Shown piece after piece: positions 2,015 to 26,875 of a stretch of 64,000 bases of DNA; position 1 is the stretch's first letter; each line of letters starts with the position of its first letter. This DNA is from an uncultured Solirubrobacteraceae bacterium. Its GTDB lineage: Bacteria > Actinomycetota > Thermoleophilia > Solirubrobacterales > Solirubrobacteraceae. The notes under the pieces were generated by a model. It saw only the letters and a list, made by a program, of their open reading frames with translations, had not been told where the DNA came from and ran no database searches. Where the stretch lies: contig CAZPQW010000008.1 of NCBI GenBank assembly GCA_964588985.1, positions 32,001 to 96,000 on the forward strand, read 5' to 3'. The translations under genes were made by a program, and so were the position numbers.

Positions 2015-2638
2015 ATGAGGCGTACAACAACGACGGCAGTGGGGCTGGTGGCCCTTGTGGTGATGTTGGTGCTCGGCGTGTTCTCCGCCGGGTCAGCGTC
2101 AGCGCATTTATTCTTATACACGGGACCCTTACCCTCATTACTCTTAATATTAAGCGAGGGTCCGCAGATCTTCAACGTTACACCAGAAGGCTTCCAAATC
2201 AATTGTCCGCATTTCTTAGGTCATATTCAGGTCTCTAATGGTGTGATGTGGGGCTTAACGGCCAAAGTCACCGGTGACTATCCCGGCAAATGCACCGTGA
2301 CCGGTGGCTCCAAAGGGACGATCTCCCCGGTGGAATACGAAATCAGTGCTGACGGCACGATCTCTATTCTCAAAACCATTACAATCACGGCCGGGAGTCC
2401 GGCCAACTGCAGTCTCTTAGTCGAACCGACCGCAGAAAACCAGAACCTCTCAAGCCTCTTATTCTTAAAAGATCCCCTCAACTCTGGAGCGATATTAGGG
2501 CATGCCGCAGTTGGTGGCATCCACTCGAAAGGCACCAGCGGGGTCTGTTCTGAAAAGGAAGAAAATAACTACACTAAAGGTAGCTATTTCGGCTTATTCT
2601 TAGTGTGGGTGCATGGGGGTACTGTTGCTTGGGAGTAG
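2015..2638 (+). CDS. Secreted 4-Cys beta-rich protein, TTA-rich family, copy 1
   Basis: AAGGAG SD, signal peptide ending ASA, 4 Cys, 14 TTA codons; three homologues in window. Confidence 0.9.
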   Translation: MRRTTTTAVGLVALVVMLVLGVFSAGSASAHLFLYTGPLPSLLLILSEGPQIFNVTPEGFQINCPHFLGHIQVSNGVMWGLTAKVTGDYPGKCTVTGGSKGTISPVEYEISADGTISILKTITITAGSPANCSLLVEPTAENQNLSSLLFLKDPLNSGAILGHAAVGGIHSKGTSGVCSEKEENNYTKGSYFGLFLVWVHGGTVAWE

Positions 2639-2698
2639 TTTAGATATGGCAGTTTCACGCTGTGTTACAGGAGGTTATGAAGGCTAGTTAGCTGGCTT

Positions 2699-2733
2699 GG
2701 GTGGGGGTTGGGTTTGGTGTCTGGCTCCCACCC
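2699..2733 (+). terminator. Conserved 3' hairpin of cassette 1 (GGGTGGGGGTTGGG...CTGGCTCCCACCC)
   Basis: Homologous stems follow copies 2, 3 and 4; G-U rich here, no U-tract directly after the stem until GGTTTTG. Confidence 0.55.
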
Positions 2734-2816
2734 GGTTTTGTTGCGTGAGGGGAGTTGGTGTGGGTTTGTGTGGTTGTGATGGTGGTGGGGTTGGGTGTCT
2801 AGGAGGGGGTTGGGCT

Positions 2817-5483
2817 GTGGCTGGACCGGCGTTTAGGCGTGTTTGTTTGGTGGTGCTTGTTGTGGTGCTCTCTGGGTGTGTGGTGTGGGTGTCTGTGGCG
2901 GGTGCTGTGGTGTTGCCGGATGGTCGTGGCTATGAGCTGGTTTCGCCGGTGGCGAAGAATGGTTTGAGCCCGTATGCGGCGGTCCCTTCTACCACCGGTG
3001 GGGCGGTGGATTTTCAGGCGCGTGGGGCGTTTGCCGGCGCGACGTCTGGGGCTCTGAACCTGTATCAGGCGACGCGTACGGCTGGTGGCTGGCAGACAGC
3101 GCCGTTGACGCCGGCCCCGTCTACCCCGTTGGGGGCTTTGGAAGAGCAGGCGCCGGTATGGCTGTCGGCGGACTTGTCTGAGGCGATCTTCACGACCCCT
3201 GAGTCCTATGCTCCTGGCGATCAAGACGGCGGCGCGCTGAGCCTGTACGCAGAGGCTGTGGGTGGCGGGTTGAGCTGGCTATCGCAGGGATCTCAGGGAG
3301 GCACGGAATCGAGCGAGACGACGTTCGATGGAGCCTCACCAGACGGGAACCATGTCGTGTTCAGCAGCCACGCATCGCTGATCCCGCCCGCAACAGGGCT
3401 TGGGAGCGATGCAGCCCCAGAAGCGGAGTACCTCTACGAACGCAACGCTCCTGAAGCCCAAACACACCTGCTCAACGTAAACAATGCCGGGCAGATCATC
3501 GGCAGCCTCGAAACCACGCTTCCCAAAGGATACACACCAGGCCCAACGGCAAACTTTATCGCGGTCGCCCTTATCGAAGGAGAGGGCTTTTTCCCGGGGC
3601 AGTTCATCACGGTAGGCGAAGGTGAAAGCGAACTGACCACACAGATCACCCAGGTCTTCAAGATAAGCAGTACAACAGAGAGCTTGGGAGTGGGAAACAA
3701 CGCTGGATTGCCGATAGCGTATCCTGTGGGTACGCGTGTGGCGCATTTGTCGGAAGGCGCGATTTTGGGTGATGGTGGTGATTTGGCGTCGGGTGTGGCG
3801 CCTGCGAGTGAATATTTGCCGGCGGATGCTGGTAGTGGCTCCACGACCCATGCGGTGTCGAGTGATGGCTCGAAGGTGTTCTTCGAGAGCCCGAACCCCG
3901 CGGTTGGCGAGCCGGTGGGCCTATATGTGCGTATAGGTAATGCCACGACTGTAAAGATTGCTGGAGCGAGCGCTGATGGCACCAGACTCAGCGGGCTCCT
4001 CGAATCGGAGGCGGTCATATTCGGTTCGGCGCGGTTTGAGGGTGCGGCGGCGGACGGGTCGCTGGTGTTCTTCACTTCAGGTGAAGGGCTTGCTGGTGCG
4101 ACGAGTGGTGGGGAGGTGTATGAGTTCAACACGACCGGCCATGAAATCGGAGGGGTCAGCCCGTTGTCCGTCGGTGCCGTATCAGCCGGGCTGGGAGGCG
4201 ACAGAACCCCGGCAAGCACCCTCACCGCCACCGCGGCGGGGCGCAAACCGGGCGTAACCATCAGGGTCGCGAGCACGGCGGGGTTCCATGCCGGGGAAGA
4301 GATCATGTTCGCGCCGTTCGAAACAGAAGGAGAATTCGGAATGAGCTCGGGTGTGACGTCGAGGGTCGCGTCGGTGGACAGTGCGACCGAACTCACTCTC
4401 AGCGAAGGCCTGATCGGGGTAGGGTTCGGTGTTCCGGCTGGTACGGAAGTGCATGGTGTTCATCCGGCGTCTGTGGTTGCGGTCGCGGATGATGGTTCGC
4501 GTGTGTATTTCGTCTCGGATGGTGTGTTGGCGGAAAACACGAACGCTCAGGGTGCGAGCGCGGTCCCGGTGCAGCCGAACCTGTACGTGTTCGATACAGC
4601 GACCCAGGAAACCGCGTTTATCGGGACGTTGGCGTCGAGTGATGTGAGGGATGCGGGGGGTAACCCGTCGGGTTTGGTGGGCGAGCCGGATATCTCTCGG
4701 CCTGCTGTGCCGAGCCCTGACGGTGGTGTTCTGGTGTTCGCGTCTGCGGCTGATTTGACGGGCCAGAACCCGTGGCAGCAATACACCGAGATCTACCGGT
4801 ACTCGGTCGCGGGCAACTCGCTGGTGTGCGTGTCGTGCACCGCCCCGGGAGTGAAGCCCGCGGGGAACGCGTCGTTCGGGGAAACCGCCGGCGGCACTTA
4901 TGATCCGCCGGGCTTGACATCCCCGATGAGCGCAGATGGCGCTCGCGTGTTCTTCCAGACCCCAGACTCGCTTGTCGCGGAAGACACGAACGGGAGTGCT
5001 CCTGTGAGCCCGAAGTTCGGGACCCCAACCTCCACGGATGTGTATGAGTGGGAGGAAGGGCACGTGTCACTGATCTCCAGCGGCTCGGCGTCCACCCCGG
5101 CCGTTTTGATGGGCGCCACGCCCAGCGGAAACGATGCGCTGTTCACAACAACAGCGCAACTGGTACCCAGCGAGACTGACGGGGGCTATGAAAACGTGTT
5201 CGACGCACGCGTCGACGGGGGATTCCCCGCCGCAGCGAAAGCCGGCCCCTCATGCTCCGGCTCGGGGTGCACTGCAGCGTTCGGTCTCGCCCCCACGCTC
5301 CAAGCGCCCGCCAGCGCGTCACTACGCGGCCCCGGGAACACGCCCGCCAAGACAACCCCGAAACCAAAGCCAAAGCACATGGCCTGCGGGAAGCGACACG
5401 TACGACGACACGTGAAAGGCCGAACAGTATGCGCCCGACGAGCCAAGAACACCCAGAAAGCAGGCAGCACACATGCACACTAA
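2817..5483 (+). CDS. Large secreted TolB/WD40-like beta-propeller protein with basic C-terminal tail, copy A
   Basis: AGGAGG at 2801 then GTG at 2817; signal peptide; 'LPDGRGYELVSP'; repeated 'S.DG..VFF.S' blades; tail 'CGKRHVRRHVKGRTVC'. Confidence 0.85.
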   Translation: MAGPAFRRVCLVVLVVVLSGCVVWVSVAGAVVLPDGRGYELVSPVAKNGLSPYAAVPSTTGGAVDFQARGAFAGATSGALNLYQATRTAGGWQTAPLTPAPSTPLGALEEQAPVWLSADLSEAIFTTPESYAPGDQDGGALSLYAEAVGGGLSWLSQGSQGGTESSETTFDGASPDGNHVVFSSHASLIPPATGLGSDAAPEAEYLYERNAPEAQTHLLNVNNAGQIIGSLETTLPKGYTPGPTANFIAVALIEGEGFFPGQFITVGEGESELTTQITQVFKISSTTESLGVGNNAGLPIAYPVGTRVAHLSEGAILGDGGDLASGVAPASEYLPADAGSGSTTHAVSSDGSKVFFESPNPAVGEPVGLYVRIGNATTVKIAGASADGTRLSGLLESEAVIFGSARFEGAAADGSLVFFTSGEGLAGATSGGEVYEFNTTGHEIGGVSPLSVGAVSAGLGGDRTPASTLTATAAGRKPGVTIRVASTAGFHAGEEIMFAPFETEGEFGMSSGVTSRVASVDSATELTLSEGLIGVGFGVPAGTEVHGVHPASVVAVADDGSRVYFVSDGVLAENTNAQGASAVPVQPNLYVFDTATQETAFIGTLASSDVRDAGGNPSGLVGEPDISRPAVPSPDGGVLVFASAADLTGQNPWQQYTEIYRYSVAGNSLVCVSCTAPGVKPAGNASFGETAGGTYDPPGLTSPMSADGARVFFQTPDSLVAEDTNGSAPVSPKFGTPTSTDVYEWEEGHVSLISSGSASTPAVLMGATPSGNDALFTTTAQLVPSETDGGYENVFDARVDGGFPAAAKAGPSCSGSGCTAAFGLAPTLQAPASASLRGPGNTPAKTTPKPKPKHMACGKRHVRRHVKGRTVCARRAKNTQKAGSTHAH

Positions 5484-5499
5484 GACGAAGGGGAAGCGA

Positions 5500-6245
5500 A
5501 AGCTTGGGCCGTTGATGGCGAGGCATCGAGGCGTTGTGCAGGAGGCGACCGAGGGCGCCGGGACCAGCAGTGCCGGCGACGACCTTTATTAGAGGTGGTC
5601 TCGATCGAGTCGCGTGTAGCGATCCTTGTGCTCGATGAGCCGTAGGCCTCGCAACTCGGTGAGGCGTTTGTGGTTGAGCTCGGGCTGGAGTGTCGCGTCG
5701 AACTGTGGAGAAGTCCAGCGCGCACGATCCCTGGTAGCGAGTGAGCCACCGCACTGACCACGGTCAACGGAGCCCCCGACGTCAATCGCAAAATCGGAGG
5801 GAGGTGGGGCCACTTCGAGCGTCAAGAGCGTTGGTCCTTTTGCGAGCGCCCATTATGGATTCGGGCTGTGGCGGGGTCCCAGCTAGCTTCTCGAGGGTGC
5901 TGGTGAGGACGCTGCCACGGAACTCGTTGCCGTTGTCCGAGAGCATCCGTTCCAAGCGCCAGCCCGCGATCTTCAGTGCCCGTGCAACACGTCCGGCGAG
6001 CGCGATTGGGCTGCCTTGCTTGCAGATCACGAGCTCCGCCCAGGCGCAGGAGGACGCGATGTCGATCGCAATGAGCTGTCAGATCGGCGCCCGGTGCCCT
6101 TCTGTCGTCCGGCGTAGAAGCAGGGTGCTGCGTGGCCTGCGATCAGCGCGGGGCACTTGGCGCGGGTGTTCAGCCCGTGGCGGCGAAGAACCTTCCACGC
6201 CCCCGTTCGGCGAGACGATGATCTCGCCCCACTTCTTCAGGCACA
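5500..6245 (-). pseudogene. Degenerate IS481-family transposase remnant
   Basis: Minus-strand fragments in different frames: 'KWGEIIVSPNG', 'AIDIASSCAWAEL', 'GWRLERMLSDNGNEFRG'; boundaries approximate. Confidence 0.7.
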
Positions 6246-6486
6246 AGGATCTACCCCTGGTTTGTTGGAGTCGCGTGTTTAGAGTCCTGGCATCGGCTAG
6301 GAGGCAGAATGCCCGCGAGGTATCCATCAGCAGTGCGTCGTCAGGTCGTTGAGCTTGCTCGTGCGGGGACGCGTGTCGCGCAGCTGGCTGAGACGTTCGG
6401 GATGATGACGGGGTCCCTGTGATGTGAGCCAGGTGCTGTGCGTGTTTGTCATGTCCCGTTGGTGGGATGAGAGGATGGACACGATC

Positions 6487-6765
6487 ATGAAGCGACGTAG
6501 GCACACGCCGGAGCAGGCCGTTCGGAAGATCCGTGAGGGCGAACGACTGTTGAACGAGGGGCAGGATCTCGCCGAGGTGCTGAGGCATCTCGAGATCACC
6601 GAGTCGACGTTCAACCGGTGGCGCGCGCAATACGGCGGGCTGAAGGCCGATGAGGCCAAGCGGCTGAAGACGCTCGATGCCGAGAACCAGCGGCTGAAGA
6701 AGCTCGTGGCTGAGCAGGCGCTGGACATCGACATGCTCAAGGAGCTGGCGGAGGGAAACTTTTGA
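6487..6765 (+). CDS. IS3-B transposase OrfA
   Basis: MKRRRHTPEQAVRKIREG HTH, then 'RLKTLDAENQRLKKLVAEQALD' coiled coil. Confidence 0.9.
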   Translation: MKRRRHTPEQAVRKIREGERLLNEGQDLAEVLRHLEITESTFNRWRAQYGGLKADEAKRLKTLDAENQRLKKLVAEQALDIDMLKELAEGNF

Positions 6766-7609
6766 CCCCGGAACGTAGGCGCAGAGCTGTCGGTCGGCTC
6801 GAAGAGCGTTTCGGGGTTTCACAGCGCCGTGCGTGCCGGGTAGCTGGGCAGCATCGCTCGACGCAGCGCAAACCCCCGCCGGCGCCACGTCCGGCGGATG
6901 AGCGGCTCGCTGCCCGGTTGCGGGAGATCGCGGGTGAGCATCCGCGGTGGGGGTGGAAGACCGCCCATGAGACCCTGCTCAGGGAGGGCTGGGCACTGAA
7001 CCGCAAGCGAACACGCCGCATCTGGCGCCAGGAGGGCCTGCGGCGGCCCGTGAAGACACGGAAGCGTCGTCGGCTGCCCAGCGGGCAGAAACAGCGTCTG
7101 CGGGCGAGCAGGCCGAACGATGTACGGGCTGTTGATTTCCAGTTCGATGAGATCTCCGACCGGCGCAGGATCAAGCTGTGCAACATCGTGGATGAGTACA
7201 CCCGCGAGGCGCTCGCGATCCGCGTCGCCCGGTCCTGCACCGCCGACGACGTCGTTGAGGTCCTTGCCGGCCTGGTCGCTGAGCGGGGCGCACCCGCCTT
7301 TCTGCGCTCGGATAACGGCCCGGAGTTCATCGCGTGGCACTGCGGGACTACTGCCGAATGACGCTTATGGCCACAAGCTACATCGAGCCGGGATCGCCGT
7401 GGGAGAACCCGTTCGTTGAGTCCTTCAACGGCCGGCTCCGCGACGAGCTGCTGAACATCGAGGAGTTCGGCTCAATCACCGAGGCCAGGGTCGTGATCGA
7501 GGACTGGCGCCACGAGTACAACACCTACCGGCCCCACTCAGCCCTCGGAGGCCGCTGTCCAAGCGAGTACGCCACAATCACAACAACAAACAATCAAGAA
7601 CACACATAG
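6762..7609 (+). pseudogene. IS3-B transposase OrfB with a 1-nt frameshift near 7336
   Basis: 'RSDNGPEFIA' in one frame and 'ALRDYC...IEPGSPWENPFVESFNGRLRDE' in another; real lesion or sequencing error. Confidence 0.85.
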
Positions 7610-7838
7610 CCACTGGACTCCTCACTGGGGCCCCGTCAATGACCGAGACGACGATCTATAACTGGATCAATCAGGAGAAGATCGATCGTGGCGAGATCGT
7701 CGGGCAGACGACGGACCAGGCGTTGGAACTCGCCGCGGCGAAGCGCCGTATCCGAGAGCTCGAGACAGAGCTCGCGGTCTCGCGGAAGGTCAATGAGATC
7801 TTTCTCGATCAGGATCTCGCCCCAAAAGCCTCTTCCCG

Positions 7839-8702
7839 GTGATCGAGTCTCTGACCGGGCAGGGAATCAACGTCAGACACGCCTGCCGGGTCCTCGGCGT
7901 ATCCGAGTCCGGCTACTACGACTGGAAGGACAGGCCGCCGTCAGCGACGGCGCTCAGGCGCCTATGGCTCGCTGGCGAGATCACGGACGTGCACCGGGCC
8001 TCTGGCGGCATCTACGGCGCTGAACGCGTGACAGCCGAGCTGCGCTACGGCCGCGACATCCTCGTGAGCCACAACGCGGTATCGGACATCATGCGACGTC
8101 TCGGGCTCAAGGGCGTCCCGAATCGTCGGCTCCCGCGAGGGGCGCGGGCAGGCGCGTATCGCTCGCTTGACTTGGTTCGCCGCGACTTCTCGCGGCGTGC
8201 CCCGAACGAGCTATGGATGACCGACATCACCGAGCACCCCACGAGGGAGGGCAAGGTCTACTGCTGTGTCGTGCTCGATGCGTTCTCACGCATGGTCGTC
8301 GGCTGGGCCATCGATAGCACCCAGACGACCGCACTCGTCACGACAGCGCTCGGTATGGCGACCAGCACCCGCAACCCCGACAGCGGCCTGGTGCTGCATA
8401 GCGATCGCGGGGTTCAATTCACCTCTTGGGCCTTCAGCCGCAAGCTCCAAGACGCCGGGCTCGCACCATCGATGGGAGCCGTCGGGGCACCCGGAGACAA
8501 TGCCATGGTCGAGTCGTTCTGGGGACGCATGCAGGTCGAGCTACTCAACCGCAAACGATGGAAGACAAGGATCGAGCTCGCGACTGCGATCCACGACTAC
8601 ATCGAGACCTTCCGCAACACCACAAGACGCCACAGCGCGCTGAACATGCTCACACCAACCGAATACGAGAACCACTACCAATCAACCACCGCTACCGCCT
8701 GA
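7839..8702 (+). CDS. IS3-A transposase OrfB (DDE)
   Basis: 'WMTDITE', 'HSDRGVQF', 'DNAMVESFW'. Confidence 0.92.
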   Translation: MIESLTGQGINVRHACRVLGVSESGYYDWKDRPPSATALRRLWLAGEITDVHRASGGIYGAERVTAELRYGRDILVSHNAVSDIMRRLGLKGVPNRRLPRGARAGAYRSLDLVRRDFSRRAPNELWMTDITEHPTREGKVYCCVVLDAFSRMVVGWAIDSTQTTALVTTALGMATSTRNPDSGLVLHSDRGVQFTSWAFSRKLQDAGLAPSMGAVGAPGDNAMVESFWGRMQVELLNRKRWKTRIELATAIHDYIETFRNTTRRHSALNMLTPTEYENHYQSTTATA

Positions 8703-8805
8703 CCCCAAACCCACGACTCCGCAAAAATAGGGGTAGTGAGCCAGGCCGGTTTTGACGGGGGCCGTATTCCGTGGATATGTCCGCGGGAGGGGAGAGCCTT
8801 CTGGC

Positions 8806-9108
8806 ATGTCGAGACCGTCGAAGTACCCACCGGAGTTGATCGAGCGCGGGGTTCGTCTGGCGCTTGAGGGCGAGCGGCCGATTGCTCATGTCGCTGATGA
8901 TTTGGGCATCCACCGCGAGACGTTGCGCAAACACGTCAGGCAGGCCGAGGCTGATAGCGGCAAGCGAGGCGACCTGCTCTCGAGCGAGGAGCGGGAGGAG
9001 ATCAAGAAGCTGCGCCGCGAGAACTTCGAGTTGCGCAGGGCGAACGAGATCCTGAAGTCAGCGAGCGTGTTTTTCGCCAAGGAGCTCGACCCAGACCGAA
9101 CGAAGTGA
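8806..9108 (+). CDS. IS3-C transposase OrfA
   Basis: MSRPSKYPPELIERGVRL...'LRRANEILKSASVFFAKELD'. Confidence 0.9.
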   Translation: MSRPSKYPPELIERGVRLALEGERPIAHVADDLGIHRETLRKHVRQAEADSGKRGDLLSSEEREEIKKLRRENFELRRANEILKSASVFFAKELDPDRTK

Positions 9109-9701
9109 GCGCCTACGTGCAGGAGCACCGGGAGCGCTTCGGGGTCGAGCCGATCTGCAGCACTTTGGGCGTGTCGGCGTCCGCCTTCTACCAGCGCGCC
9201 ACCGGCCAACGATCGGCGAGGGCCGTGGAGGATGAGCGGCTGCTCGCCAGGATTCGTGAGGTGCATGAGGCGAACTACTGCGCCTATGGCTACCGCAGGA
9301 CCTGGAAGGCTCTCACGCGTGCGGGTGAGCGGGCGCCACGGTGTCGGGTGCAGCGGCTGATGCGGGCTCACGGGATCCAGGGAGCGAAGCGTCGAGGCAA
9401 GCCGTGGCGGACCACGACCCCCGATCCTGAAGCTCCCCGGCGGCCGGACTTGGTGAACCGTGATTTCACCGCCTCGGCGCCGAACGAGCTGTGGGTCGCG
9501 GACTTCAGCTATCTGCGTTGCTGGGAGGGGCTGGTGTTCTTCAGCTTCGTGATCGATGTCTACAGCCGCAAGGTCGTGGGCTGGCAGTTCGCCAGGCACA
9601 TGCGCACCACCTTGGTCCTCGACGCGCTACGGATGGCACTCTCGACAAGGCAACGGGTCGAGGAGGTCCGGCTCATTCACCACTCCGACAGGGGGTCGCA
9701 A

Positions 9702-11149
9702 GGCGGGCTCAACTGGTCGTCGCAACACGTTGATCGTGGAGGTGCTGATGGGCAGGCCAGCTGGGTGGATGACGGAGATAACGGGCAGGGCACCGATGAA
9801 GTCGCCTGGGAAGCCATCGCTTCGCCGAGATGTGGAGCGGTTGTTCTGGCGTGAGATCGCCAAGGGCCTGAGCAGTGAGGACGCTGCGTTGTCCGTCGGC
9901 GCCTCTTCGGCGGCAGGCAGCCGATGGTTCAGGGAACGTGGTGGCATGCCAACATTCATGCTTGCCTCGCTCTCGGGTCGCTATCTGTCATTCGAGGAGC
10001 GAGAGGAGATCTCGATTTGCAGGGCTCAGGGCGCCGGGGTTCGGGAGATCGCACAGCGGCTGGGGCGTTCCCCGTCGACGATCTCCAGGGAGCTGCACCG
10101 CAACGCTGCCACTCGCGGCGGGCAGTTCGACTATCGCGCATCGGTCGCGCAGTGGAAGGCGGAGCTGGTGGCACGCCGCCCAAAGACCGCGAAGCTCGCA
10201 GCCAACCCGCGGCTGAGCGAGTACGTGCACGAGCGGCTCTCCGGGGGAGTTCGCCGGCCGGACGGGACCGCGGTGCCGGGCCCAGCTACGGCGCCTTGGA
10301 AGGGCCGCAACAAGCCGATGCGCCAGGACCGCAAGTGGGCCAGAGCGTGGAGCCCGGAACAGATATCCAACCGCTTGAGGATCGACTTCCCCGATGATGA
10401 GGCGATGCGGATATCGCACGAGGCGATCTACCAGGCGCTCTACGTGCAGGGCCGCGGCGCGCTCCGGCGTGAGCTCACCGCGTGCTTGCGCAGCGGCAGG
10501 GCTCTGCGAGTTCCCAGAGCCCGCGTGCGCAGACGTGGCAAGAGCTACGTCACCGAGCAAATCATGATCAGTGAGCGTCCCGCCGAGGCCGAGGACCGCG
10601 CTGTGCCAGGGCACTGGGAGGGCGATCTCATCCTCGGTGCCGACCAGACAGCGATCGGGACGCTCGTCGAGCGCAGCACTCGGTTCACCATGCTGCTTCA
10701 CCTACCACCGATGCCCGGCCACGGCGGCACAAGAGTGAAGAACGGGCCACCGCTCGCCGGACGGGGAGCCGAGGCAGTGCGCGATGCCATCACCGCTCAG
10801 ATCACCACGTTGCCAGAGCAGCTACGCCGCTCCCTCACCTGGGACCAAGGAGCGGAGATGACACAACACGCACAGATCACAATCGACAGCGGGCTGAAGG
10901 TCTATTTCTGTGACCCTCAGAGCCCGTGGCAGCGAGGCACGAACGAGAACACCAACGGCCTGCTCCGCCAATACTTCCCCAAAGGCACCAACCTCGCCAG
11001 ACACACCGCCGAGGAGCTCGAGGCGGTCGCTGCAACGCTCAACAGCAGGCCACGCAAGACACTCGGCTGGCGCACACCCGCCGAAACACTCGACGAGCAT
11101 CTACGATCCCTCCCAACGCAAACCGTTGCGTCCACCAGTTGAATCCGCC
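9702..11149 (+). mobile_element. IS30-family element
   Basis: IRs GGCGGGCTCAACTGGTCGTCGCAAC / GTTGCGTCCACCAGTTGAATCCGCC; 3-bp duplication CAA. Confidence 0.92.
9748..11142 (+). CDS. IS30 transposase (appears intact)
   Basis: GGAGG SD then ATG; 'RYLSFEEREEI', 'GHWEGDLI', 'TWDQGAEM', 'WQRGTNENTNGLLRQYFPK'. Confidence 0.92.
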   Translation: MGRPAGWMTEITGRAPMKSPGKPSLRRDVERLFWREIAKGLSSEDAALSVGASSAAGSRWFRERGGMPTFMLASLSGRYLSFEEREEISICRAQGAGVREIAQRLGRSPSTISRELHRNAATRGGQFDYRASVAQWKAELVARRPKTAKLAANPRLSEYVHERLSGGVRRPDGTAVPGPATAPWKGRNKPMRQDRKWARAWSPEQISNRLRIDFPDDEAMRISHEAIYQALYVQGRGALRRELTACLRSGRALRVPRARVRRRGKSYVTEQIMISERPAEAEDRAVPGHWEGDLILGADQTAIGTLVERSTRFTMLLHLPPMPGHGGTRVKNGPPLAGRGAEAVRDAITAQITTLPEQLRRSLTWDQGAEMTQHAQITIDSGLKVYFCDPQSPWQRGTNENTNGLLRQYFPKGTNLARHTAEELEAVAATLNSRPRKTLGWRTPAETLDEHLRSLPTQTVASTS

Positions 11150-12915: not shown

Positions 12916-12960
12916 AAGTCAGAAACTACACTTGCGGAGCGCTAGTAGTCAGCGTACAGT
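12916..12960 (+). promoter_or_regulatory. Box plus promoter TTGCGG-N17-TACAGT (cassette 2)
   Basis: Same architecture as cassette 1. Confidence 0.7.
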
Positions 12961-13008
12961 AGAAGCTACGGTGTCACGTGTAATGGCTCCTTAGGGATGT
13001 CTAGGCTG

Positions 13009-13041
13009 ATGTTTGACGCTACTCCGGGTGGGCGCTTATAA
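13009..13041 (+). CDS. Putative TTA leader peptide (cassette 2)
   Basis: Identical to 1958-1990. Confidence 0.5.
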   Translation: MFDATPGGRL

Positions 13042-13065
13042 GTCCAATCGTAAAGGAGTAGTTAG

Positions 13066-13689: not shown

Positions 13690-13867
13690 TTTAGATATGG
13701 CAGTTTCACGCTGTGTTACAGGAGGTTATGAAGGCTAGTTAGCTGGCTTGGGTGGGGGTTGGGTTTGGTGTCTGGCTCCCACCCGGTTTTGTTGCGTGAG
13801 GGGAGTTGGTGTGGGTTTGTGTGGTTGTGATGGTGGTGGGGTTGGGTGTCTAGGAGGGGGTTGGGCT

Positions 13868-16534: not shown

Positions 16535-16556
16535 GACGAAGGAAACAGAGGGAGCG

Positions 16557-19445
16557 ATGATGAGTGTTGTGACTGACAACGGGTTTGCTCACGGCGGCGT
16601 TGGGGCTCGTGTGCGTTTCGCTCTCTTGATGGCGGTAGCGCTGGTGTTGGTCGCCGGCTCGAGTGTTGCGGGCGCGTCTGAAGGGTTTGGTGTGTCCTCC
16701 TTCTCGACGGGCGTGTCGTCGCTGCAGGCTGGTGGGCATGCGGATTTCACGACGGAATTCTCGGTGGGCCGGGAAGCGTTGGGTGGTCCGTTGGGGCAGG
16801 TCAAGAATTTGACGGAGACGCTGCCGGTGGGGTTGGTGGGTGATCCGCAGGACATTCCGCGGTGCACGCCGGCGCAGCTCACGGAATTCGATTGTCAGCC
16901 GTCTTCCCAGGTCGGTGTGTTGATTTCGCGGTTCTCGTTTCCGGCGACTGAAGAAGGCGAAGAACCGTTGGAAGTCGAAGAACGGAGTGGCGTCTACAAC
17001 ATGGTGCCCTCGCCTGGTCATCCGGCGACGTTCGCGACGCAGGTGGCGTTCGCGACGGTGTTGATCCAGGCTGATGTAAAGCGTGATGGTTCGTCGCGCT
17101 TGGTGGCTAGCGTGAGGGAACTTTCGACGCTGGAGCCGTTGGTGTCGACGTCGTTGACGATGTGGGGTGTGCCGGCGGATCCGTCGCATGATGCGTTGCG
17201 GTTTCTCGCGCCTCCGGGCGAAGGGGCGGGTGTCGGTGCTGGTGTTGCGCCGACGCCGTTCATGATCAACTCGAGTGACTGCACGGATGGGCCTTTGGAA
17301 AGCCGGCTCGAACTTCAATCGTGGTCGGGCGAAGAAGCGAGCGCGACAGCGGAAATGCCTGCCCCGACGGGGTGTGGCTCGCTGAGCGCGTCCCCGACGA
17401 TCTCGGTGGTCCCGGAAACGTCTCAGGCGGGGGCGCCGTCTGGGTATGAAGTTGATTTGAAGGTGCCGCAGGAACTAGCGCCTTATGCGTCCTCGACCCC
17501 GGATTTGCGTGACGCGGTCGTGACCTTGCCTGCTGGGACTGTGGCGTCGCCGTCGGCGGCGAATGGGCTTGAAGCTTGTAGCGAGTCCGAGTTTGGGTGG
17601 GAAGGGGTGACCCCGACCTCGGTGGGGCACGCGAACGAAAGCCCCGTGGCGTGCCCGGCCGGCTCGGAAATCGGGACGGTCGAAGTGCTGACGCCGCTGC
17701 TCGGGAGCCCGGTTAAGGGTTCGGTGTTCTTGGCGGCGCAGGACGCGAACCCGTTCAAGTCGTTGCTCGCGGTCTACATGGTGCTGGAAGGCGAAGGTGT
17801 GCAGGTCAAGCTCGCGGGGCGTGTGAGCCCGAATCCCGCGACGGGGCAGTTGACGACGAGCTTCACGGCGATTCCGCAGGTCCCGTTCAGCGAGTTGCGG
17901 TTGCATGTGCGTGGCGGACCGGCCGCTTCTCTGTCGAACCCGACCGTGTGTGGCCCGGCTAGGAGTGTGGCGGCGTTGACGTTCTACAGCAGCCCCGTCC
18001 CGGTGGAACCCTCGAGCGTGTTCGACGTGACGGGCTGTGGGGCGCCGAGGTTCGCGCCGTCGTTCACGGCCGGCACCACGACCCCTGTGGCGGGTGCGTT
18101 CAGCCCGATGAGCGTCCTGATCGCAAGGACCGACGCCGACCAGGACATCGAAGGGGTCCAGGCCACGACCCCGCCTGGGCTGCTTGGCGTGCTGGCGAGT
18201 GTCCCGCTCTGCGGAGAACCGGCCGCTTCGAAAGGCGAATGCCCTGCAGCATCGGAAATCGGGCATGTCGTCGTCGGAGCGGGCCCGGGCCCGGAACCGG
18301 TCTACATCCCCGAGACGGGTCACCCACAGAGCCCCGTTTTCCTCACGACCGGGTATAAGGGCGCCCCATTCGGGTTGAGCATCGTGGTGCCCGCTGTCGC
18401 GGGCCCGTTCAACCTGGGGACCGTGATCATGAGAGCCCGCGTGGATGTGGATCCCCATACCTCGCAGGCTGTGATCACGAGCGACCCTCTGCCCCAGATC
18501 CTGAAGGGCATACCCGTCCAGGGTCGCACCATCAACGTCGTCGTGGACCGCAAAGAATTTATGTTCAACCCGACAAGCTGCGAACCCCTCGCGGCTACAG
18601 GGGTGATCACCTCCGCGCAGGGTATGGTCGCGAACGTGAGCAGTCCGTTCCAGACGGGAGGCTGTCAGAAACTGTCGTTCAAACCGTCGTTCGCGGCCTC
18701 GGTGCAGGGGAATGGCACGTTCAAAGGGCACGGGGCATCCCTCACGGTCAGGGTCTCCACACACCAGGGGCCAACCGTCTCGGGTGGTGGGGAATCGAAC
18801 CTCGCTAAAGCCGATGTCCAGCTCCCGGTGGAGCTCCCATCCAGGGATGCGACCCTGCAGAAAGCTTGCACCGCGCAGGTGTTCGCGGCGAACCCCGCCG
18901 GGTGCCCGACAGCGTCGAGGGTCGGGACGGCGGTCGTGCACACTCCGCTGCTCGCTTCACCGCTGGAAGGTCCGGCAATCATCGTGAGCCATGCGGGGGC
19001 GGCGTTCCCCGACCTCGACTTGGTGCTGCAGGGCGATGGGGTCACGTTCGACCTGGTCGGAAACACTCAGATCAAGCACGGGATCACCTACAGCCACTTC
19101 GATACCGCCCCAGATGCTCCGTTCTCAAGCTTCGAACTGAAGCTCCCCGAGGGCCCCAACAGCATCCTCGCCGCTTTCCTGCCGCACGGCAGCACCCTCT
19201 GTACAACAACGATCGTGAAGAGCGTGAAGATCAAATCCCACGGGCGGACAAGACGCGTCAAACGCAACGTCCCAGCGCCGTTGCTGATGCCGACGACGCT
19301 GACCGCCCAAGACGGAGCAGTCATCAAACAGACCACGAAGATCGCGGTCACGGGGTGCCCGGCCCCAGCGAAAGCCCACAAGGCCAAGGCCCGGAAGGCC
19401 AGAAGAGCGCGAACCGCGCGCACGAACAGGAAGGCGGCCCACTGA
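16557..19445 (+). CDS. Large secreted beta-rich protein with internal repeats and basic tail
   Basis: GGAG SD, signal peptide, recurring 'LP.G...P....C...C P..S.IG.V' units, tail 'GCPAPAKAHKAKARKARRAR'. Confidence 0.85.
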   Translation: MMSVVTDNGFAHGGVGARVRFALLMAVALVLVAGSSVAGASEGFGVSSFSTGVSSLQAGGHADFTTEFSVGREALGGPLGQVKNLTETLPVGLVGDPQDIPRCTPAQLTEFDCQPSSQVGVLISRFSFPATEEGEEPLEVEERSGVYNMVPSPGHPATFATQVAFATVLIQADVKRDGSSRLVASVRELSTLEPLVSTSLTMWGVPADPSHDALRFLAPPGEGAGVGAGVAPTPFMINSSDCTDGPLESRLELQSWSGEEASATAEMPAPTGCGSLSASPTISVVPETSQAGAPSGYEVDLKVPQELAPYASSTPDLRDAVVTLPAGTVASPSAANGLEACSESEFGWEGVTPTSVGHANESPVACPAGSEIGTVEVLTPLLGSPVKGSVFLAAQDANPFKSLLAVYMVLEGEGVQVKLAGRVSPNPATGQLTTSFTAIPQVPFSELRLHVRGGPAASLSNPTVCGPARSVAALTFYSSPVPVEPSSVFDVTGCGAPRFAPSFTAGTTTPVAGAFSPMSVLIARTDADQDIEGVQATTPPGLLGVLASVPLCGEPAASKGECPAASEIGHVVVGAGPGPEPVYIPETGHPQSPVFLTTGYKGAPFGLSIVVPAVAGPFNLGTVIMRARVDVDPHTSQAVITSDPLPQILKGIPVQGRTINVVVDRKEFMFNPTSCEPLAATGVITSAQGMVANVSSPFQTGGCQKLSFKPSFAASVQGNGTFKGHGASLTVRVSTHQGPTVSGGGESNLAKADVQLPVELPSRDATLQKACTAQVFAANPAGCPTASRVGTAVVHTPLLASPLEGPAIIVSHAGAAFPDLDLVLQGDGVTFDLVGNTQIKHGITYSHFDTAPDAPFSSFELKLPEGPNSILAAFLPHGSTLCTTTIVKSVKIKSHGRTRRVKRNVPAPLLMPTTLTAQDGAVIKQTTKIAVTGCPAPAKAHKAKARKARRARTARTNRKAAH

Positions 19446-21928
19446 TGATGCGCAAACGCACACGCTCGCTCCCACGTCGTGCGCTCAAGGGAGCCCTGCT
19501 TGGCCTGGTCGTCCTTGCTGTGCTGCCGTCGGTGGCGTTCGCGGAAGCGCCGGAAGCGCCGGCGATGGAACCCGCGACGGCGATCACGGGCACGTCGGCG
19601 ACGTTGAACGGGGAACTGAACCCCGGGGCGAGCGTGGAAAAGGTGTCCTACCGGTTCTTCTATAGCCCTGGCGGGGAATGCACGAGCTTCCTCGCGGTGC
19701 CCGCCGAACCGCCGTTCCCGGAAGCCGAAGGCAGCCATCAGAAAGTCTCTGCGCCCGTGACTGGTTTGGAGGCGCTGACGACATATCAGGTGTGTCTGCT
19801 TGCGTCGAACCCGGCCAATGAAGCCGAAGCGACGTTCAGCCTCGCCCCGGACGTATTCGAAACGGCCGCGTCGAAGCCGGTCGTGATCTCTGAGACGGCG
19901 GCTGGCGTCACGCCGTTCGCAGCGAGCCTGCAGGCGGAAGTGAACCCGGAGAACCAGCCTACGACGAGCTGCGTGTTCGAATACGGCAAAGCGGCCCTCG
20001 GGGAAAACAAACTTCCCTGCGAACAGCTCGAATTCACGGGGGGCGCCCCTGGCACGGCGACCCGCACGCTGGCGGGCCTCTCACCGCACACGAAATACAA
20101 GTTCCGGGTGGTCGTGAAGAACGCCACCGGGGAAACGAAAGGCACAGAACAATCCTTCGAAACGCTCGCGGTGGAAACCCCGTCCGTTACGAGCGAGAGC
20201 GTCAGCAGCATTCAGCCTTTCCAGGCGCGCCTCGAAGGGATCCTGAACCCGAACTTCCAGCCCACAAAATGCAAGTTCTCCTACGGTCTGGCCGTGGGGG
20301 AACACGAAACGCCGTGCGAACCGGAACTCTTCGAAGGATTCGGGGAACAGGGGTTCGGGGCGAACGTCACCGGCCTTGAAGCCGGCACGACCTACCACTA
20401 CGAGGTCCTCGCCCGCAACGCCGCCGGAGAAACCACCGGCAGCGAACAGGAATTCACGACCCCGGCTCTCGAAGCACCCGTGTTTGGGGCCGAGAGCTCT
20501 TCGGGGATCACTTCCACGGACGCCCAGCTCGAAGCCAGGATCAACCCGGATGCGCAGGAAACGAGCGTGACGTTCGAATACTCAACCGAACAATCCGCTG
20601 TCGAAGAAGGCAAAGGCACGCCGGTGTCCGCCGCGGCCCTGCCGGCGGCCTTCGAAGAAGTCACAGCCGGCCCAGTCGACCTCGGCGGGAACCTCGCCCC
20701 CGGAACCACCTACTTCTACCGTGTCATCGCGACGAACCCGAAGGGGGAAACCGCGGGGCCCGTGGAACAGTTCACGACCAGCCCGGCGGAACCCCCGATC
20801 ATTCTCGGCGAGAGCGCGAGCAACGTCACCGAAACCGGGGCGGACCTGGAAGCCACGATCAACCCGAACAGCCACGAAGCGACCTACAGCTTCGAATACT
20901 CAACCGAAGAATCCGCCGTCCAGAAAGGCGAAGGCACGACCGTCAAAGGCAAAACCCCGCTCCCTGCCGTCAACGAAGAACTCCCCGCCGGCCCGATCCA
21001 CCTCGCCGGCCTGCAGGCAGCGACCGTCTACTACTACCGGATCATCGCGGTCAACCCCGTCATGGGCACCGTCGATGGGGCCGTCCAGAGCTTCCACACG
21101 CTCGGGAAGCCCGCGATCACGACCGAACCAGAAGCAACGACACGCACCACCGCGACGATCAACGCCACGATCAACCCAAACGGGTCCCCGACGCTCTACA
21201 GCATCCTCTACATCGCGGAATGCACCGAAGAAAGCACCCTGTGCCCTGAAGAAGAAAGCATCGGCATCCGCACCATCCCCACGAGCAGCTACACCCCCCA
21301 GCCAGCGGGCCCCGTGACCCTCCAGGAACTCAAACCGGGCACCACCTACTTCTACATCGTGATCGCGACCAACCAAGCCGGCACCACGATCAGCGAAGAA
21401 CAAGAATTCACAACCAGCCCCCGAACCCCACCCACCGCCACACTCAACCCCGCAACCAGCATCACCCCGACCACCGCGACCATCACCGCGACCATCGACA
21501 CCCGCGGGCTACCGACCACCATCAGCCTTCAGGTCGGCACCGAACCCGCCAACACCACCCCGATCAACGCCACCACCACACAAGAAAACAACACCATCCA
21601 CGCCACCGCCATCCTCCAAGGCCTACAACCCAACACCACCTACACCATCACCCTGACCGCCACCAACCCGGACGGCACAACCACACCCACCACAACCACC
21701 TTCACCACACCCCCCAACCCGGCCCTACTCACCACCCCGCCCACTTCGCCCACCCTCACCTACACGCCCATAACCACCATCACGACCCAACAAAACAAAG
21801 AAGACAAGCAAAACATTCAGCGAGAACTCCTCAACAAAGCACTGAAGACCTGCAGGCACAAGCCCAAGCACCAACGCAAGCACTGCGAACGGCAAGCACG
21901 CAAGAGATACGGCAAGAGAACGAGCTAG
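19445..21928 (+). CDS. Secreted fibronectin type III repeat protein (about 7 domains) with basic Cys-pair tail
   Basis: TGATG coupling with upstream gene; repeats 'A.L.A.INP...L.PGTTY.YRV.ATN..G......FTT'; tail 'LNKALKTCRHKPKHQRKHCERQARKRY'. Confidence 0.88.
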   Translation: MMRKRTRSLPRRALKGALLGLVVLAVLPSVAFAEAPEAPAMEPATAITGTSATLNGELNPGASVEKVSYRFFYSPGGECTSFLAVPAEPPFPEAEGSHQKVSAPVTGLEALTTYQVCLLASNPANEAEATFSLAPDVFETAASKPVVISETAAGVTPFAASLQAEVNPENQPTTSCVFEYGKAALGENKLPCEQLEFTGGAPGTATRTLAGLSPHTKYKFRVVVKNATGETKGTEQSFETLAVETPSVTSESVSSIQPFQARLEGILNPNFQPTKCKFSYGLAVGEHETPCEPELFEGFGEQGFGANVTGLEAGTTYHYEVLARNAAGETTGSEQEFTTPALEAPVFGAESSSGITSTDAQLEARINPDAQETSVTFEYSTEQSAVEEGKGTPVSAAALPAAFEEVTAGPVDLGGNLAPGTTYFYRVIATNPKGETAGPVEQFTTSPAEPPIILGESASNVTETGADLEATINPNSHEATYSFEYSTEESAVQKGEGTTVKGKTPLPAVNEELPAGPIHLAGLQAATVYYYRIIAVNPVMGTVDGAVQSFHTLGKPAITTEPEATTRTTATINATINPNGSPTLYSILYIAECTEESTLCPEEESIGIRTIPTSSYTPQPAGPVTLQELKPGTTYFYIVIATNQAGTTISEEQEFTTSPRTPPTATLNPATSITPTTATITATIDTRGLPTTISLQVGTEPANTTPINATTTQENNTIHATAILQGLQPNTTYTITLTATNPDGTTTPTTTTFTTPPNPALLTTPPTSPTLTYTPITTITTQQNKEDKQNIQRELLNKALKTCRHKPKHQRKHCERQARKRYGKRTS

Positions 21929-21959
21929 CTCGGTGACCAGCAGCACAGCGCCGGAGTAA

Positions 21960-22055: not shown

Positions 22056-22100
22056 ATGATTGACGCTACTCCGAGTGGGCGCTTACAAGTCCAATCGTAA
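22056..22100 (+). CDS. Putative TTA leader peptide MIDATPSGRLQVQS (cassette 3)
   Basis: TTA at codon 10; TAA overlaps the main gene's AAGGAG. Confidence 0.5.
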   Translation: MIDATPSGRLQVQS

Positions 22101-22117
22101 AGGAGTGGTTGAGGCAT

Positions 22118-22735
22118 ATGAGGCGTGTAACAACGACAGCCATGGGGCTGGTGGCCCTTGTGGCGGTGCTGCTGCTCGGCGTGTTCTTCGCCGGGTCGGC
22201 ATCGGCGCACTTATTCTTATACACAGGACCCTTACCGACCTTACTGTTACTCTTAAGTGATAGCGCGCAGATCTTCAGCTTTGTGCCAGAAGGCCTGCAA
22301 ATAAGTTGTCCGCATTTCTTAGGTCACATCCTGTTCTCTGGCGGGACGATGTGGGGATTAACGACCAAAGTCACTGGTGACTATCCCGGCAAATGCACGA
22401 TGACCGGTGGCTCCAAACTGACTTTCTCACCGGTGGAATATGAACTCAATGCCGACGGAACGATATCGATTCTCAAAACTATCACGATTACGGCCGGTAG
22501 TCCGGCCAGCTGCAGTTTCTTAATCGAACCGACCGCAGCGAATCAGAACCTCTCAAGCCTCTTATTCTTAAAAGATCCTCTGAACTCTTCGGCACTGTTA
22601 GCGCACGTCGCTGTTGGAGGCATCCACTCAAAAGGAACCAATGGGCTATGCGCCGAAGGCGGGGAACACACGAACACAACATATTTCGGCTTAATCTTAG
22701 TGCGGGTCGATGGAGGTAACGTTACATGGGAGTAG
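22118..22735 (+). CDS. Secreted TTA-rich protein, copy 3
   Basis: Clear paralog; 14 TTA codons at the same aligned positions as copy 1. Confidence 0.9.
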   Translation: MRRVTTTAMGLVALVAVLLLGVFFAGSASAHLFLYTGPLPTLLLLLSDSAQIFSFVPEGLQISCPHFLGHILFSGGTMWGLTTKVTGDYPGKCTMTGGSKLTFSPVEYELNADGTISILKTITITAGSPASCSFLIEPTAANQNLSSLLFLKDPLNSSALLAHVAVGGIHSKGTNGLCAEGGEHTNTTYFGLILVRVDGGNVTWE

Positions 22736-24559: not shown

Positions 24560-24580
24560 TCCTCTAGGGTACGCGGACGA

Positions 24581-25300: not shown

Positions 25301-25326
25301 CCGCGCAGCAGGCCGATGTCGAACAC

Positions 25327-26076: not shown

Positions 26077-26093
26077 GTCGCAAACGCTGGTAG

Positions 26094-26132
26094 GAAACTG
26101 CGCTTGCACGATACCGTCCGCGAGCATATAAT
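26094..26132 (+). promoter_or_regulatory. GAAACTGCGC-TTGCAC-N17-TATAAT promoter (cassette 4)
   Basis: Near-consensus sigma70 promoter with the shared upstream box. Confidence 0.78.
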
Positions 26133-26186
26133 TCTAGCTAAGGAGTCGTTTCGCATAGTTGGTTCCCTAAGGGGTGTCCTGGCCTG

Positions 26187-26231
26187 ATGATCGACGCTAC
26201 TCCGAGTGGGCGCTTACAAGTCCAATCGTAA
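26187..26231 (+). CDS. Putative TTA leader peptide MIDATPSGRLQVQS (cassette 4)
   Basis: Same peptide as cassette 3, one synonymous change (ATT/ATC). Confidence 0.5.
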   Translation: MIDATPSGRLQVQS

Positions 26232-26248
26232 AGGAGTGGTTGAGGCAC

Positions 26249-26875
26249 ATGAGACATGTAACAACGACAGCCACGGGTCTGATGGCCCTTGTGATGATGC
26301 TGGTGCTCGGGGTGTTCTCCGCCGGGTCGGCGTCGGCGCACTTATTTTTATACACAGGACCATTACCGGTCTTACTTTTACTCTTAAGTGACAATGCGCA
26401 GATCTTCAACCCTGCAGAGGGTAATGAAGGTACTAGCATTAGCTGCCCGCATTTCCGTGGCCACATACTATTCGCTGGTGGCACGATGTGGGGGTTAACG
26501 GCCAAAGTAACTGGCGAATATCCTGGAAAGTGCAAAGGATTCATCGGCGCCAAAGCAACCGTCTCACCGGTTGAATACGAAATCAATGCCGATGGCACGA
26601 TATCGGTTCTCAAAACCATTACGATCACGATCGGTAGTCCGTGGATCTGCAGTCTCTTAGTCGATCCGGTCGCCGCGAATCAGAATCTCTCGGGCCTCTT
26701 ATTCTTAAAAGATCCTCTGGCCCCGAGCTTAGCCCTATTAGTGCACGCTGCGGTTGGAGGCATCCACTCATTAGGCACAAACGGGGAATGTGCTGAAGCA
26801 GGAGAACATCCTGCAGGTACCTATTTCGGCTTAATCTTAGTATGGGCTCATGGGGGCACCGTTTCATGGGAGTAG
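26249..26875 (+). CDS. Secreted TTA-rich protein, copy 4
   Basis: Paralog with 15 TTA codons; ATG chosen by homology. Confidence 0.9.
   Translation: MRHVTTTATGLMALVMMLVLGVFSAGSASAHLFLYTGPLPVLLLLLSDNAQIFNPAEGNEGTSISCPHFRGHILFAGGTMWGLTAKVTGEYPGKCKGFIGAKATVSPVEYEINADGTISVLKTITITIGSPWICSLLVDPVAANQNLSGLLFLKDPLAPSLALLVHAAVGGIHSLGTNGECAEAGEHPAGTYFGLILVWAHGGTVSWE

Follow-up and report, generated by a model that had tools for sequence, protein, structure and literature searches.

In Streptomyces, a high-GC actinobacterium in which TTA is likewise the rarest codon, a defined gene set depends on the tRNA(UAA) encoded by bldA, which is the sole decoder of UUA, has a normal long arm and acts on targets with one or a few TTA codons (PMC2000904 supports part of this description; the remainder is general background). 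A type I tRNA-Leu(CAA) of S. coelicolor, described by Fan et al. 2019 (PMC6614811), is a class-I tRNA with a leucine anticodon and a U8:A14 pair that occurs beside class-II tRNA-Leu and is the sole reader of its codon. In the CUG-Ser/Leu yeasts (Ascoidea, Saccharomycopsis), two tRNA bodies with one anticodon, tRNA-Ser(CAG) and tRNA-Leu(CAG), coexist in a cell, and the codon stands at sites that do not hold the standard residue in homologues (bioRxiv 10.1101/2023.07.05.547863 for part of this, general background for the rest). Here we describe a locus that shares features with each of these systems. It lies in a 64,000-nucleotide (nt) stretch of DNA from an uncultured Solirubrobacteraceae bacterium (the window; contig C8, positions 32001-96000, of genome G000, an assembly of 3.41 Mb in 48 contigs at 68.3% GC), where four genes for secreted paralogs carry 14 or 15 TTA codons each at fixed positions; elsewhere the same genome encodes a second, class-I tRNA with the anticodon UAA.

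An earlier note on this DNA had counted 14 TTA and six CTC among the 20 mature-region Leu codons of copies 1 and 2, none of the TTA being in the signal peptide, and 14 and 15 TTA in copies 3 and 4. Our recount agrees, the four signal-peptide Leu codons of copies 1 and 2 being CTG, CTT, TTG and CTC, and the poly-Leu runs that it quoted (TTA-CTC-TTA-ATA-TTA, TTA-CTG-TTA-CTC-TTA and TTA-CTT-TTA-CTC-TTA) are exact. For in-frame TTA the four copies rank 1-4 among 13,072 six-frame open reading frames (ORFs) of at least 90 amino acids (aa). The rarity of TTA asserted in the same note also holds: across 2,193 typical ORFs, TTA makes up 146 of 87,823 Leu codons (0.2%), and it is not simply common in low-GC genes, because non-family ORFs with a third-position GC content (GC3) below 0.6 still use it for only 1.3% of Leu codons (372/28,835). 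Given the gene's own base composition, the probability of at least 14 TTA among 24 Leu codons is 4.8e-5.

These codons are locked in place. Between copies 1 and 3, TTA is kept in 14/14 columns, while 43/139 other degenerate columns encoding the same residue differ synonymously; between copies 1 and 4 the corresponding figures are 13/15 and 54/129, and the TTA changes that separate the latter pair are TTA<->CGT and AAA<->TTA, never an exchange with a synonymous Leu codon. When the three distinct copies are compared, synonymous differences affect 31-42% of the degenerate columns that encode the same residue and none of the TTA columns, bearing out the claim that TTA persists while neighbouring synonymous sites drift. 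A protein search returned 21 homologues at 36-98% identity, the named relatives being Solirubrobacteraceae metagenome-assembled genomes (MAGs), in keeping with the earlier note's pointer to Thermoleophilia. Six homologues for which DNA could be compared (two MAGs supplied L042-L044, and metagenome contigs L045-L047; 41-62% aa identity to copy 1) carry 10, 13, 13, 13, 10 and 18 TTA codons, respectively. We aligned these by codon with the three distinct copies, giving nine sequences at pairwise 40-77% aa identity, and scored the 68 conserved non-Met/Trp columns in copy-1 numbering. Same-residue columns in this alignment are 31-64% synonymously different, and TTA occupies columns 39, 42, 44, 46, 151, 194 and 196 in 9/9 sequences and columns 34, 149 and 161 in 8/9. 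All ten conserved Leu-TTA columns are written in a single codon (10/10), as against 3/53 of the other conserved columns and 1/5 of the CTN-Leu columns. The TTA codon itself is under purifying selection, and the earlier proposal that it is not interchangeable with CTN here stands up in homologues down to 41% identity.

Leu columns in this family fall into two classes. Where TTA columns vary, they hold AAA, ACN, GAA, CAR, TCN, AGG, GGA or GCA, with TTG once and CTN never; CTN/TTG columns exchange with ATH, GTN and TTC, and TTA is absent from all of them. At one conserved CTN column, two sequences have CTA, a single step away from TTA, and none has TTA. A uniform codon preference fails to describe this pattern, because buried Leu columns should then drift to TTA, and none has.

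The same distinction extends beyond the close homologues. The next TTA-richest ORFs of the genome (11, 9, 9, 9, 8, 6, 6... TTA codons) encode 190-390-aa proteins with a related signal peptide, many of them ~30% identical to the four copies. TTA recurs at i/i+2 in the strands of these diverged paralogs too (for example, G-TTA-L-TTA-A-K), and other paralogs have K or T at the TTA positions while the intervening residue stays Leu(CTN). One column is TTA in five paralog lineages (~30% identity) and elsewhere K/T/E/Q/A/S, never I/V/M/F or CTN-Leu, and a second subfamily has TTA at matching positions in the source genome and in G339. We quantified these exchanges in a family alignment of 30 sequences (846 ordered pairs below 60% identity, the pairs not being independent), finding that TTA is partnered with K (695), T (685), E (406), S (306), V (278), CTN-Leu (229), A (208), N (201) and I (103), and CTN-Leu with L (1980), V (1083) and I (998). 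The TTA partner profile best fits E, R, K, S and T, with Leu 15th of 19. A higher TTA count goes with less K (slope -0.48) and less T+S (-0.54), whereas D+E stays level and hydrophobic residues are not lost. Mature-region grand average of hydropathy is +0.16 to +0.41 if TTA is scored as Leu and -0.19 to +0.03 if it is scored as Thr-like; TTA-free relatives range from -0.35 to -0.05. The triplet pattern TTA-N3-TTA-N3-TTA, sought across 41 genomes, performed no better than its reversed control outside the source genome. The pattern P-TTA-P-x-TTA-x-TTA-x-TTA occurs four times in the source genome and in 0/250 other genus genomes, making the close subfamily too rare for a distribution test.

The paralog proteins are ~205 aa long, with a signal peptide ending in SASA followed by ~177 mature residues that include four Cys, and none of the four matched a Pfam family at E <= 0.1. 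AlphaFold2, run on a 22-sequence alignment, returned an all-beta model (predicted local distance difference test score 77.2, predicted template modelling score 0.72). Foldseek searches of the PDB with this model gave nothing at E <= 0.001. In VIA-align, where Z below ~8 is common background, the best scores belong to NspA (Z 9.9, root-mean-square deviation [rmsd] 3.5, 137 residues aligned), a Legionella porin (9.9), OprF-N (9.9), OmpW (9.3), OmpA (9.2) and designed transmembrane barrels (8.6); the soluble barrels YceI (7.1), LpqH (6.9) and avidins (5.6-5.9) also align. The membrane-barrel alignments span residues ~31-203, with 119-144 residues aligned at rmsd 3.0-3.5 and 2-6% identity, and in the ESM Atlas the protein groups with unnamed actinobacterial secreted proteins. 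On this model the paralogs would be 8-stranded up-and-down beta-barrels. Neither the model nor the Pfam search lends support to the likeness to BslA and chaplins drawn earlier; both are absent from the 50 listed structural matches, which by itself would not exclude them. The TTA sites lie in at least seven strands at i/i+2 spacing, and this periodicity, combined with the residues found in paralogs, suggests that they occupy the outward face at positions that are polar in relatives.

Looking at tRNA(UAA), as the earlier note had recommended, we found a second tRNA with the same anticodon and a class-I body. ARAGORN identifies 48 tRNAs in the source genome, with cognates for all six Leu codons and both tRNA(UAA) genes among them (Table 1); on the Rfam tRNA model the class-I gene scores 65.2 bits and the normal tRNA-Leu(UAA) 56.4. 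The class-I tRNA has A73, U8:A14, a 4-bp D stem starting at C10 and the anticodon loop CUUAAAC. It has neither G3:U70 (Ala) nor a long arm (Ser), and it lacks A20/C35, which we take to be the Arg identity rule; its D-loop is presumably Leu-like in appearance. No clear parent emerged among the other tRNAs of the genome, to which it is at most 64% identical (best, Arg(CCU)).

BLAST recovered full-length orthologues in 12/24 same-genus genomes. With the source genome included, 13/13 have the anticodon UAA and a variable region of 4 nt (CGAU, UGAU or AGAU), T8 and A14 are invariant, and the D and anticodon stems carry compensatory changes. A covariance model of this tRNA (R2) scores orthologues at 98-107 bits and the next-best tRNAs at 67 or less (Lys(UUU), Met(CAU), Trp(CCA), Arg(UCU)); it detected the class-I tRNA in 12/24 and then in 8/10 further same-genus genomes. 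Searches of 16 genomes from other genera within the order did not reveal it, nor did BLAST, with three candidates scored per genome, in 300 other genomes of the phylum, so among the genomes searched it appears restricted to one Solirubrobacteraceae genus. The same P450 gene adjoins it in 14/14 loci, indicating vertical inheritance rather than mobility. Both tRNA(UAA) types occur together in G000, G003, G005 and G023, and in G008 the long-arm tRNA-Leu(UAA) was not found by this search. Both MAGs with close TTA-rich homologues carry the class-I tRNA at 99% identity.

The surroundings of this gene may form a small biosynthetic cluster. At one locus (L001), the tRNA lies between a fused glutamine-amidotransferase/chorismate-binding (PabA/B-like) ORF and the P450 gene, and the neighbouring ORFs (4291-7950, minus strand; 8391-9818, plus; 9669-11297, minus) include a Lys/Orn N-monooxygenase-like gene. 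ARAGORN also lists, elsewhere in the source genome, a tRNA-like gene with a four-base anticodon (ggag) and two tRNA-Arg(gcg) genes of odd length (Table 1).

Each of the four copies is preceded by a leader of ~150 nt, also present upstream of L042-L047, that is better conserved than the synonymous sites of the genes, across paralogs and species alike (mean identity 72% over seven sequences from four genomes or contigs). Within its 5' untranslated region (UTR), GCTACTCC is able to pair with the Shine-Dalgarno (SD) stretch GGAGTAGT. This 8-bp anti-SD helix is present in 8/9 sequences, without covariation, and an upstream GGAGTC could compete for the SD pairing. The leader may be a translational control element. 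Rfam matched no family in the window, leader included.

Codon usage in the superfamily is unusual beyond TTA. Its members strongly favour AAA over AAG and GAA over GAG, including those with no TTA and those from genomes in which the class-I tRNA was not found; GAA:GAG is 23:2 and 34:5 in the family homologues of G014 and G016, respectively. Genome-wide, AAA accounts for 14% of Lys codons and GAA for 17% of Glu codons. Conserved K and E columns of the nine-sequence alignment are near-fixed as AAA (15/17 cells) and GAA (9/9 cells). Gln in the family is mostly CAG (8/9 cells of that alignment), so the pattern is not a simple A/T enrichment, and four-fold boxes show no preference for A.

Purifying selection on TTA at polar-like sites argues that the residue placed there is most likely not equivalent to ordinary leucine, and a different product at UUA would jointly explain the codon lock, the polar exchanges and the presence of two unlike tRNAs with one anticodon. 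The reading we tentatively favour, quite possible if still short of probable, is that UUA is decoded here apart from the other Leu codons and yields something other than ordinary Leu. Under this proposal, the genus-restricted class-I tRNA(UAA) would serve a superfamily of small secreted 8-stranded beta-barrel proteins whose outward-facing strand positions are written in TTA; it would read these codons and would carry something other than Leu. UUA could then stand for some other amino acid, or the two tRNAs could compete and yield a mixture under regulation. A narrower version, in which the sense codon is expanded or split and the class-I tRNA acts as an orthogonal adaptor inserting a non-Leu residue at UUA, we regard as unlikely, though by no means far-fetched. 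What is inserted might then be a non-standard amino acid or else a polar residue, its tRNA competing in a regulated way with Leu-tRNA(UAA), and one gene could yield either a soluble or a hydrophobic-belted barrel.

Besides the canonical LeuRS gene (end of contig C17 plus start of C10) and the rest of the standard set, the only extra gene resembling an aminoacyl-tRNA synthetase (aaRS) is a LeuRS-like paralog, which scores 451 bits on the bacterial leuS model (cut-off 548) and is annotated in NCBI MAGs as 'class I tRNA ligase family protein'. Comparison with the solved LeuRS 7nua showed that it retains HIGH and KMSK but has an altered pocket (LSMFPYPSG to IKPSAPFTSG and GGIEHA..HLLY to AGSDSGNFVFD) and an altered editing motif (TTRPDT to FTPYGDA), motifs that we take to line the leucine and editing sites; it also lacks the leucine-specific insertion and the C-terminal tRNA-binding domain. 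It would be the candidate charging enzyme, but its wider distribution speaks against a dedicated role, being present in 24/24 genus genomes, also those without the class-I tRNA, and in 2/3 genomes of another genus. In 11/11 genus loci an ATGA overlap couples it translationally to the start of a threonine synthase gene, the latter being a second copy, 46% identical to the other on contig C9. We rejected the paralog as a dedicated synthetase on the grounds of this coupling and of its lack of co-distribution with the class-I tRNA, and we claim no link between the two, because the paralog also occurs without that tRNA. Beyond an MFS transporter gene, and ~3 kb away from the LeuRS-like gene, there is a gene for a YbaK-like free-standing aminoacyl-tRNA editing protein (Pfam tRNA_edit, 86.5 bits).

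Several observations weigh against a non-leucine product at UUA, and most of them fit a reading in which UUA remains leucine, the class-I tRNA is a second isoacceptor charged by LeuRS, and TTA ties synthesis of a barrel with an external hydrophobic belt to that tRNA. Such a belt could serve membrane insertion, hydrophobic-surface binding or self-association, under a bldA-like gate with its own tRNA and possibly the SD-sequestering leader; we regard this as a serious possibility, only slightly less likely than the reading favoured above, if one that we would sooner doubt than accept. On alignment evidence, UUA behaves as Leu elsewhere in the genome: TTA in ordinary genes and in other low-GC3 families aligns with L/I/V/M or with CTN-Leu in paralogues. 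Within the superfamily, signal-peptide codon 3 is 'MR-TTA' in four paralogs, and two others have 'MR-Leu(CTN)' there. Since the normal tRNA-Leu(UAA) is still present, a non-Leu tRNA(UAA) would leave UUA to be read ambiguously, and no dedicated synthetase was found, the class II aaRS genes forming the standard set. The S. coelicolor class-I tRNA-Leu(CAA) provides a precedent in Actinobacteria, being leucylated by the single LeuRS, which ignores the anticodon (PMC6614811 for both), and U8:A14 and A73 in the class-I tRNA(UAA) point the same way. An exposed, functionally needed Leu would yield the same polar partner profile. Nor do the distributions help: in 23 mutually related genomes whose tRNA status is known, the best family homologue has at least four TTA in four tRNA-positive genomes and in one genome without a detected tRNA (G365; 93% complete, 150 contigs, with a 5-TTA homologue), while the other five genomes without a detected tRNA and 10/17 tRNA-positive genomes had 0 TTA, a co-occurrence that is not significant. 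The top structural matches of the model, NspA, OprF-N, OmpW, OmpA and designed transmembrane barrels, are lipid-embedded 8-stranded barrels, the TTA spacing in at least seven strands suits such a belt, and the fall of K and T+S with TTA at unchanged D+E is as expected of a surface turning hydrophobic, although the charge balance (D+E constant, K falling) is compatible with either reading. Against leucine stand the codons themselves. Gating needs only some TTA and predicts turnover among Leu columns, whereas 10/10 are fixed; TTA is absent from buried and signal-peptide Leu columns, and the TTA columns hold one TTG and no CTN; and with cognate tRNAs for all six Leu codons, TTG or CTA should not harm strongly. 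The 4-nt variable loop is shorter than the 5 nt that S. coelicolor LeuRS needs for the only bacterial class-I tRNA-Leu studied, the loss of one nucleotide leaving only slight activity (PMC6614811). Soluble barrels match the model too, and the interior positions of our barrels are hydrophobic as well. Outer-membrane barrels have an interior unlike this hydrophobic one. Both alternatives raised in the earlier note, a tRNA gate and insertion of something other than Leu, remain the leading readings, but a plain bldA-type gate finds no support, since there are two tRNA(UAA) genes and such a gate leaves the site fixation and the TTA-free buried Leu unexplained.

Ordinary decoding, with the pattern produced by history and by the family preference for AAA, GAA and TTA, would make the extra tRNA unrelated, and we consider it improbable. 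Exposed Leu would have arisen from A-rich polar codons via TTA and stayed because TTG and CTA are disfavoured, and the tRNA may serve, for example, a tRNA-dependent biosynthetic step of the P450 cluster. The preference for AAA and GAA even in members with no TTA or no detected tRNA, the near-fixed K and E columns, the P450, N-monooxygenase-like and PabA/B-like genes among those flanking the tRNA and the statistically insecure co-occurrence all fit this account. It predicts, however, that CTN columns should convert via CTA, and none did; the use of CAG for Gln and the four-fold boxes without an A preference do not follow from it, nor does the column that is TTA in five paralog lineages and never I/V/M/F or CTN-Leu. 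That 13/13 orthologues agree in the anticodon and differ in their stems suggests that the tRNA takes part in decoding. A nucleic-acid signal, with UUA repeats bound by an RNA-binding protein, as TRAP binds GAG/UAG repeats, or with TAA stops on the antisense strand, seems very improbable. Although the triplets recur with 3-nt spacers (TTA-NNN-TTA-NNN-TTA) and the genes carry a conserved structured leader, every triplet is in frame, and together they run through the whole gene at strand positions that follow the structural period. No ORF of 100 aa or more overlaps copy 1 on either strand, the triple pattern in relatives does not exceed the reversed control, and the window has no Rfam match.

The features of the window and those elsewhere in the genome are collected in Table 1. 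All four copies end in TAG (positions 2636-2638 in copy 1), and L042-L047 in TAG (four) or TAA (two). Copies 3 and 4 are matched, without a single difference, by contigs of X4 and X6, two independent metagenome runs from the rhizosphere, and one diverged contig in run X10 covers part of copy 3. Among the public sequencing runs listed for the locus, none is of RNA. Copies 1 and 2 lie in a repeat with 97-100% identity in 100-nt bins, falling to 89% at its 3' end, that also takes in a PD40 gene, and its two copies flank a nest of transposase ORFs; the duplication is either a recent insertion sequence (IS)-associated event or an assembly collapse or expansion. The same PD40 gene also adjoins the barrel gene, before or after it, in L042-L044; in L045 and L046, a relative of the fibronectin-III (FN3) ORF is found upstream of that barrel gene. 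The interval separating copies 3 and 4 contains genes for a PolX-type DNA polymerase and a SpoIIM-like membrane protein. The isoleucyl-tRNA synthetase gene that follows copy 4 on the opposite strand shows no sign of a functional link to it.

Table 1. Coordinates of the features discussed (window positions unless a contig or locus is named)
Feature	Position	Strand	Remarks
Leader of copy 1	1866..2014	+	promoter-like CTTGCG...TA(C/T)(G/A)GT, then ~110-nt 5' UTR
Copy 1	2015..2638	+	secreted paralog, predicted beta-barrel (model), 207 aa, 14 TTA
PD40 (beta-propeller) repeat protein	2697..5483	+	928 aa; directly downstream of copy 1
Repeat (barrel gene + PD40 gene)	1900..5480 = 12951..16531		~3.6 kb, offset 11051
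Transposase ORF nest	5741..11142	+	IS3-type (HTH_Tnp_1 + rve) and IS30-type (HTH_38 + rve); between repeat copies
Leader of copy 2	~12917-13065	+	equivalent of copy 1 leader
Copy 2	13066..13689	+	DNA identical to copy 1, 14 TTA
Duplicate of 928-aa PD40 gene	13748..16534	+	downstream of copy 2
Two large ORFs	16524..21928	+	973 aa without Pfam match; 1020 aa with several FN3 domains; between copies 2 and 3
Leader of copy 3	~21955-22117	+	equivalent of copy 1 leader
Copy 3	22118..22735	+	ATG 22118, ORF opens at TTG 22109; 14 TTA; 77% aa identity to copy 1
PolX-type DNA polymerase	22811-25342	-	with PHP domain
SpoIIM-like membrane protein	25081-26076	+	
Leader of copy 4	~26089-26248	+	equivalent of copy 1 leader
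Copy 4	26249..26875	+	ATG 26249, ORF opens 26174; 15 TTA; 72% aa identity to copy 1
Isoleucyl-tRNA synthetase	27368-30706	-	TIGR00392, 861 bits; directly downstream of copy 4
Class-I tRNA(UAA)	C5 104171-104243	-	73 nt, outside window
Normal long-arm tRNA-Leu(UAA)	C1		87 nt, ARAGORN
LeuRS-like paralog	C18:24816-27104 = L068:9817-12105	+	762 aa
Threonine synthase, second copy	L068:12102-13430		
YbaK-like editing protein	L068:15049-15552	-	
tRNA-like gene, four-base anticodon	C27:31243-31339	-	97 nt
tRNA-Arg(gcg)	C4:150012-150105	-	94 nt
tRNA-Arg(gcg)	C39:15065-15142	+	78 nt

A synonymous codon that stays fixed at each of its sites although divergence is saturated is the classic sign of a codon with a non-standard meaning. 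To our knowledge, all bacterial sense-codon changes so far concern arginine codons and were found via genes with Pfam coverage; one limited to secreted proteins that lack a Pfam family would have escaped notice. In the family described here UUA stands at positions unusual for its standard residue, and genome-wide we saw no change in its meaning. In the literature, of which our coverage is incomplete, we met no account of TTA-locked genes, of a class-I tRNA with the anticodon UAA or of bacteria that reassign UUA. Should UUA prove to mean leucine, a bacterial genus with two structurally different tRNAs for one anticodon and a family of proteins in which a single codon is set aside for the outside of the barrel would still appear to be undescribed. 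The system could also provide a natural orthogonal tRNA for a sense codon.

Compared with known small barrels, these paralogs share the 8-stranded up-and-down architecture predicted by the model with OmpA/NspA/OmpW/OprF-N and with YceI/LpqH/avidin, but they have no sequence family, their low-TTA relatives are polar outside, like soluble barrels, and their host is an actinobacterium. From the CUG yeasts, in which the second tRNA is seryl and proteomics exist (bioRxiv 10.1101/2023.07.05.547863, in part), the present case differs in being a bacterial one, in concerning a single secreted superfamily, in a tRNA body that matches no identity class tested and in a codon that looks Leu-like elsewhere in the genome. 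The class-I tRNA departs from the S. coelicolor tRNA-Leu(CAA) (PMC6614811, in part) in its UAA anticodon, in a variable loop of 4 nt rather than 5, in sharing its anticodon with a class-II tRNA, where the S. coelicolor tRNA alone reads its codon, and in its limitation to one genus. As with bldA, a defined gene set may depend on a tRNA(UAA) in a high-GC actinobacterium; here, however, there are two tRNA(UAA) genes, one of them class I, and the genes carry 10-18 TTA codons each, fixed site by site across 41-77% identity.

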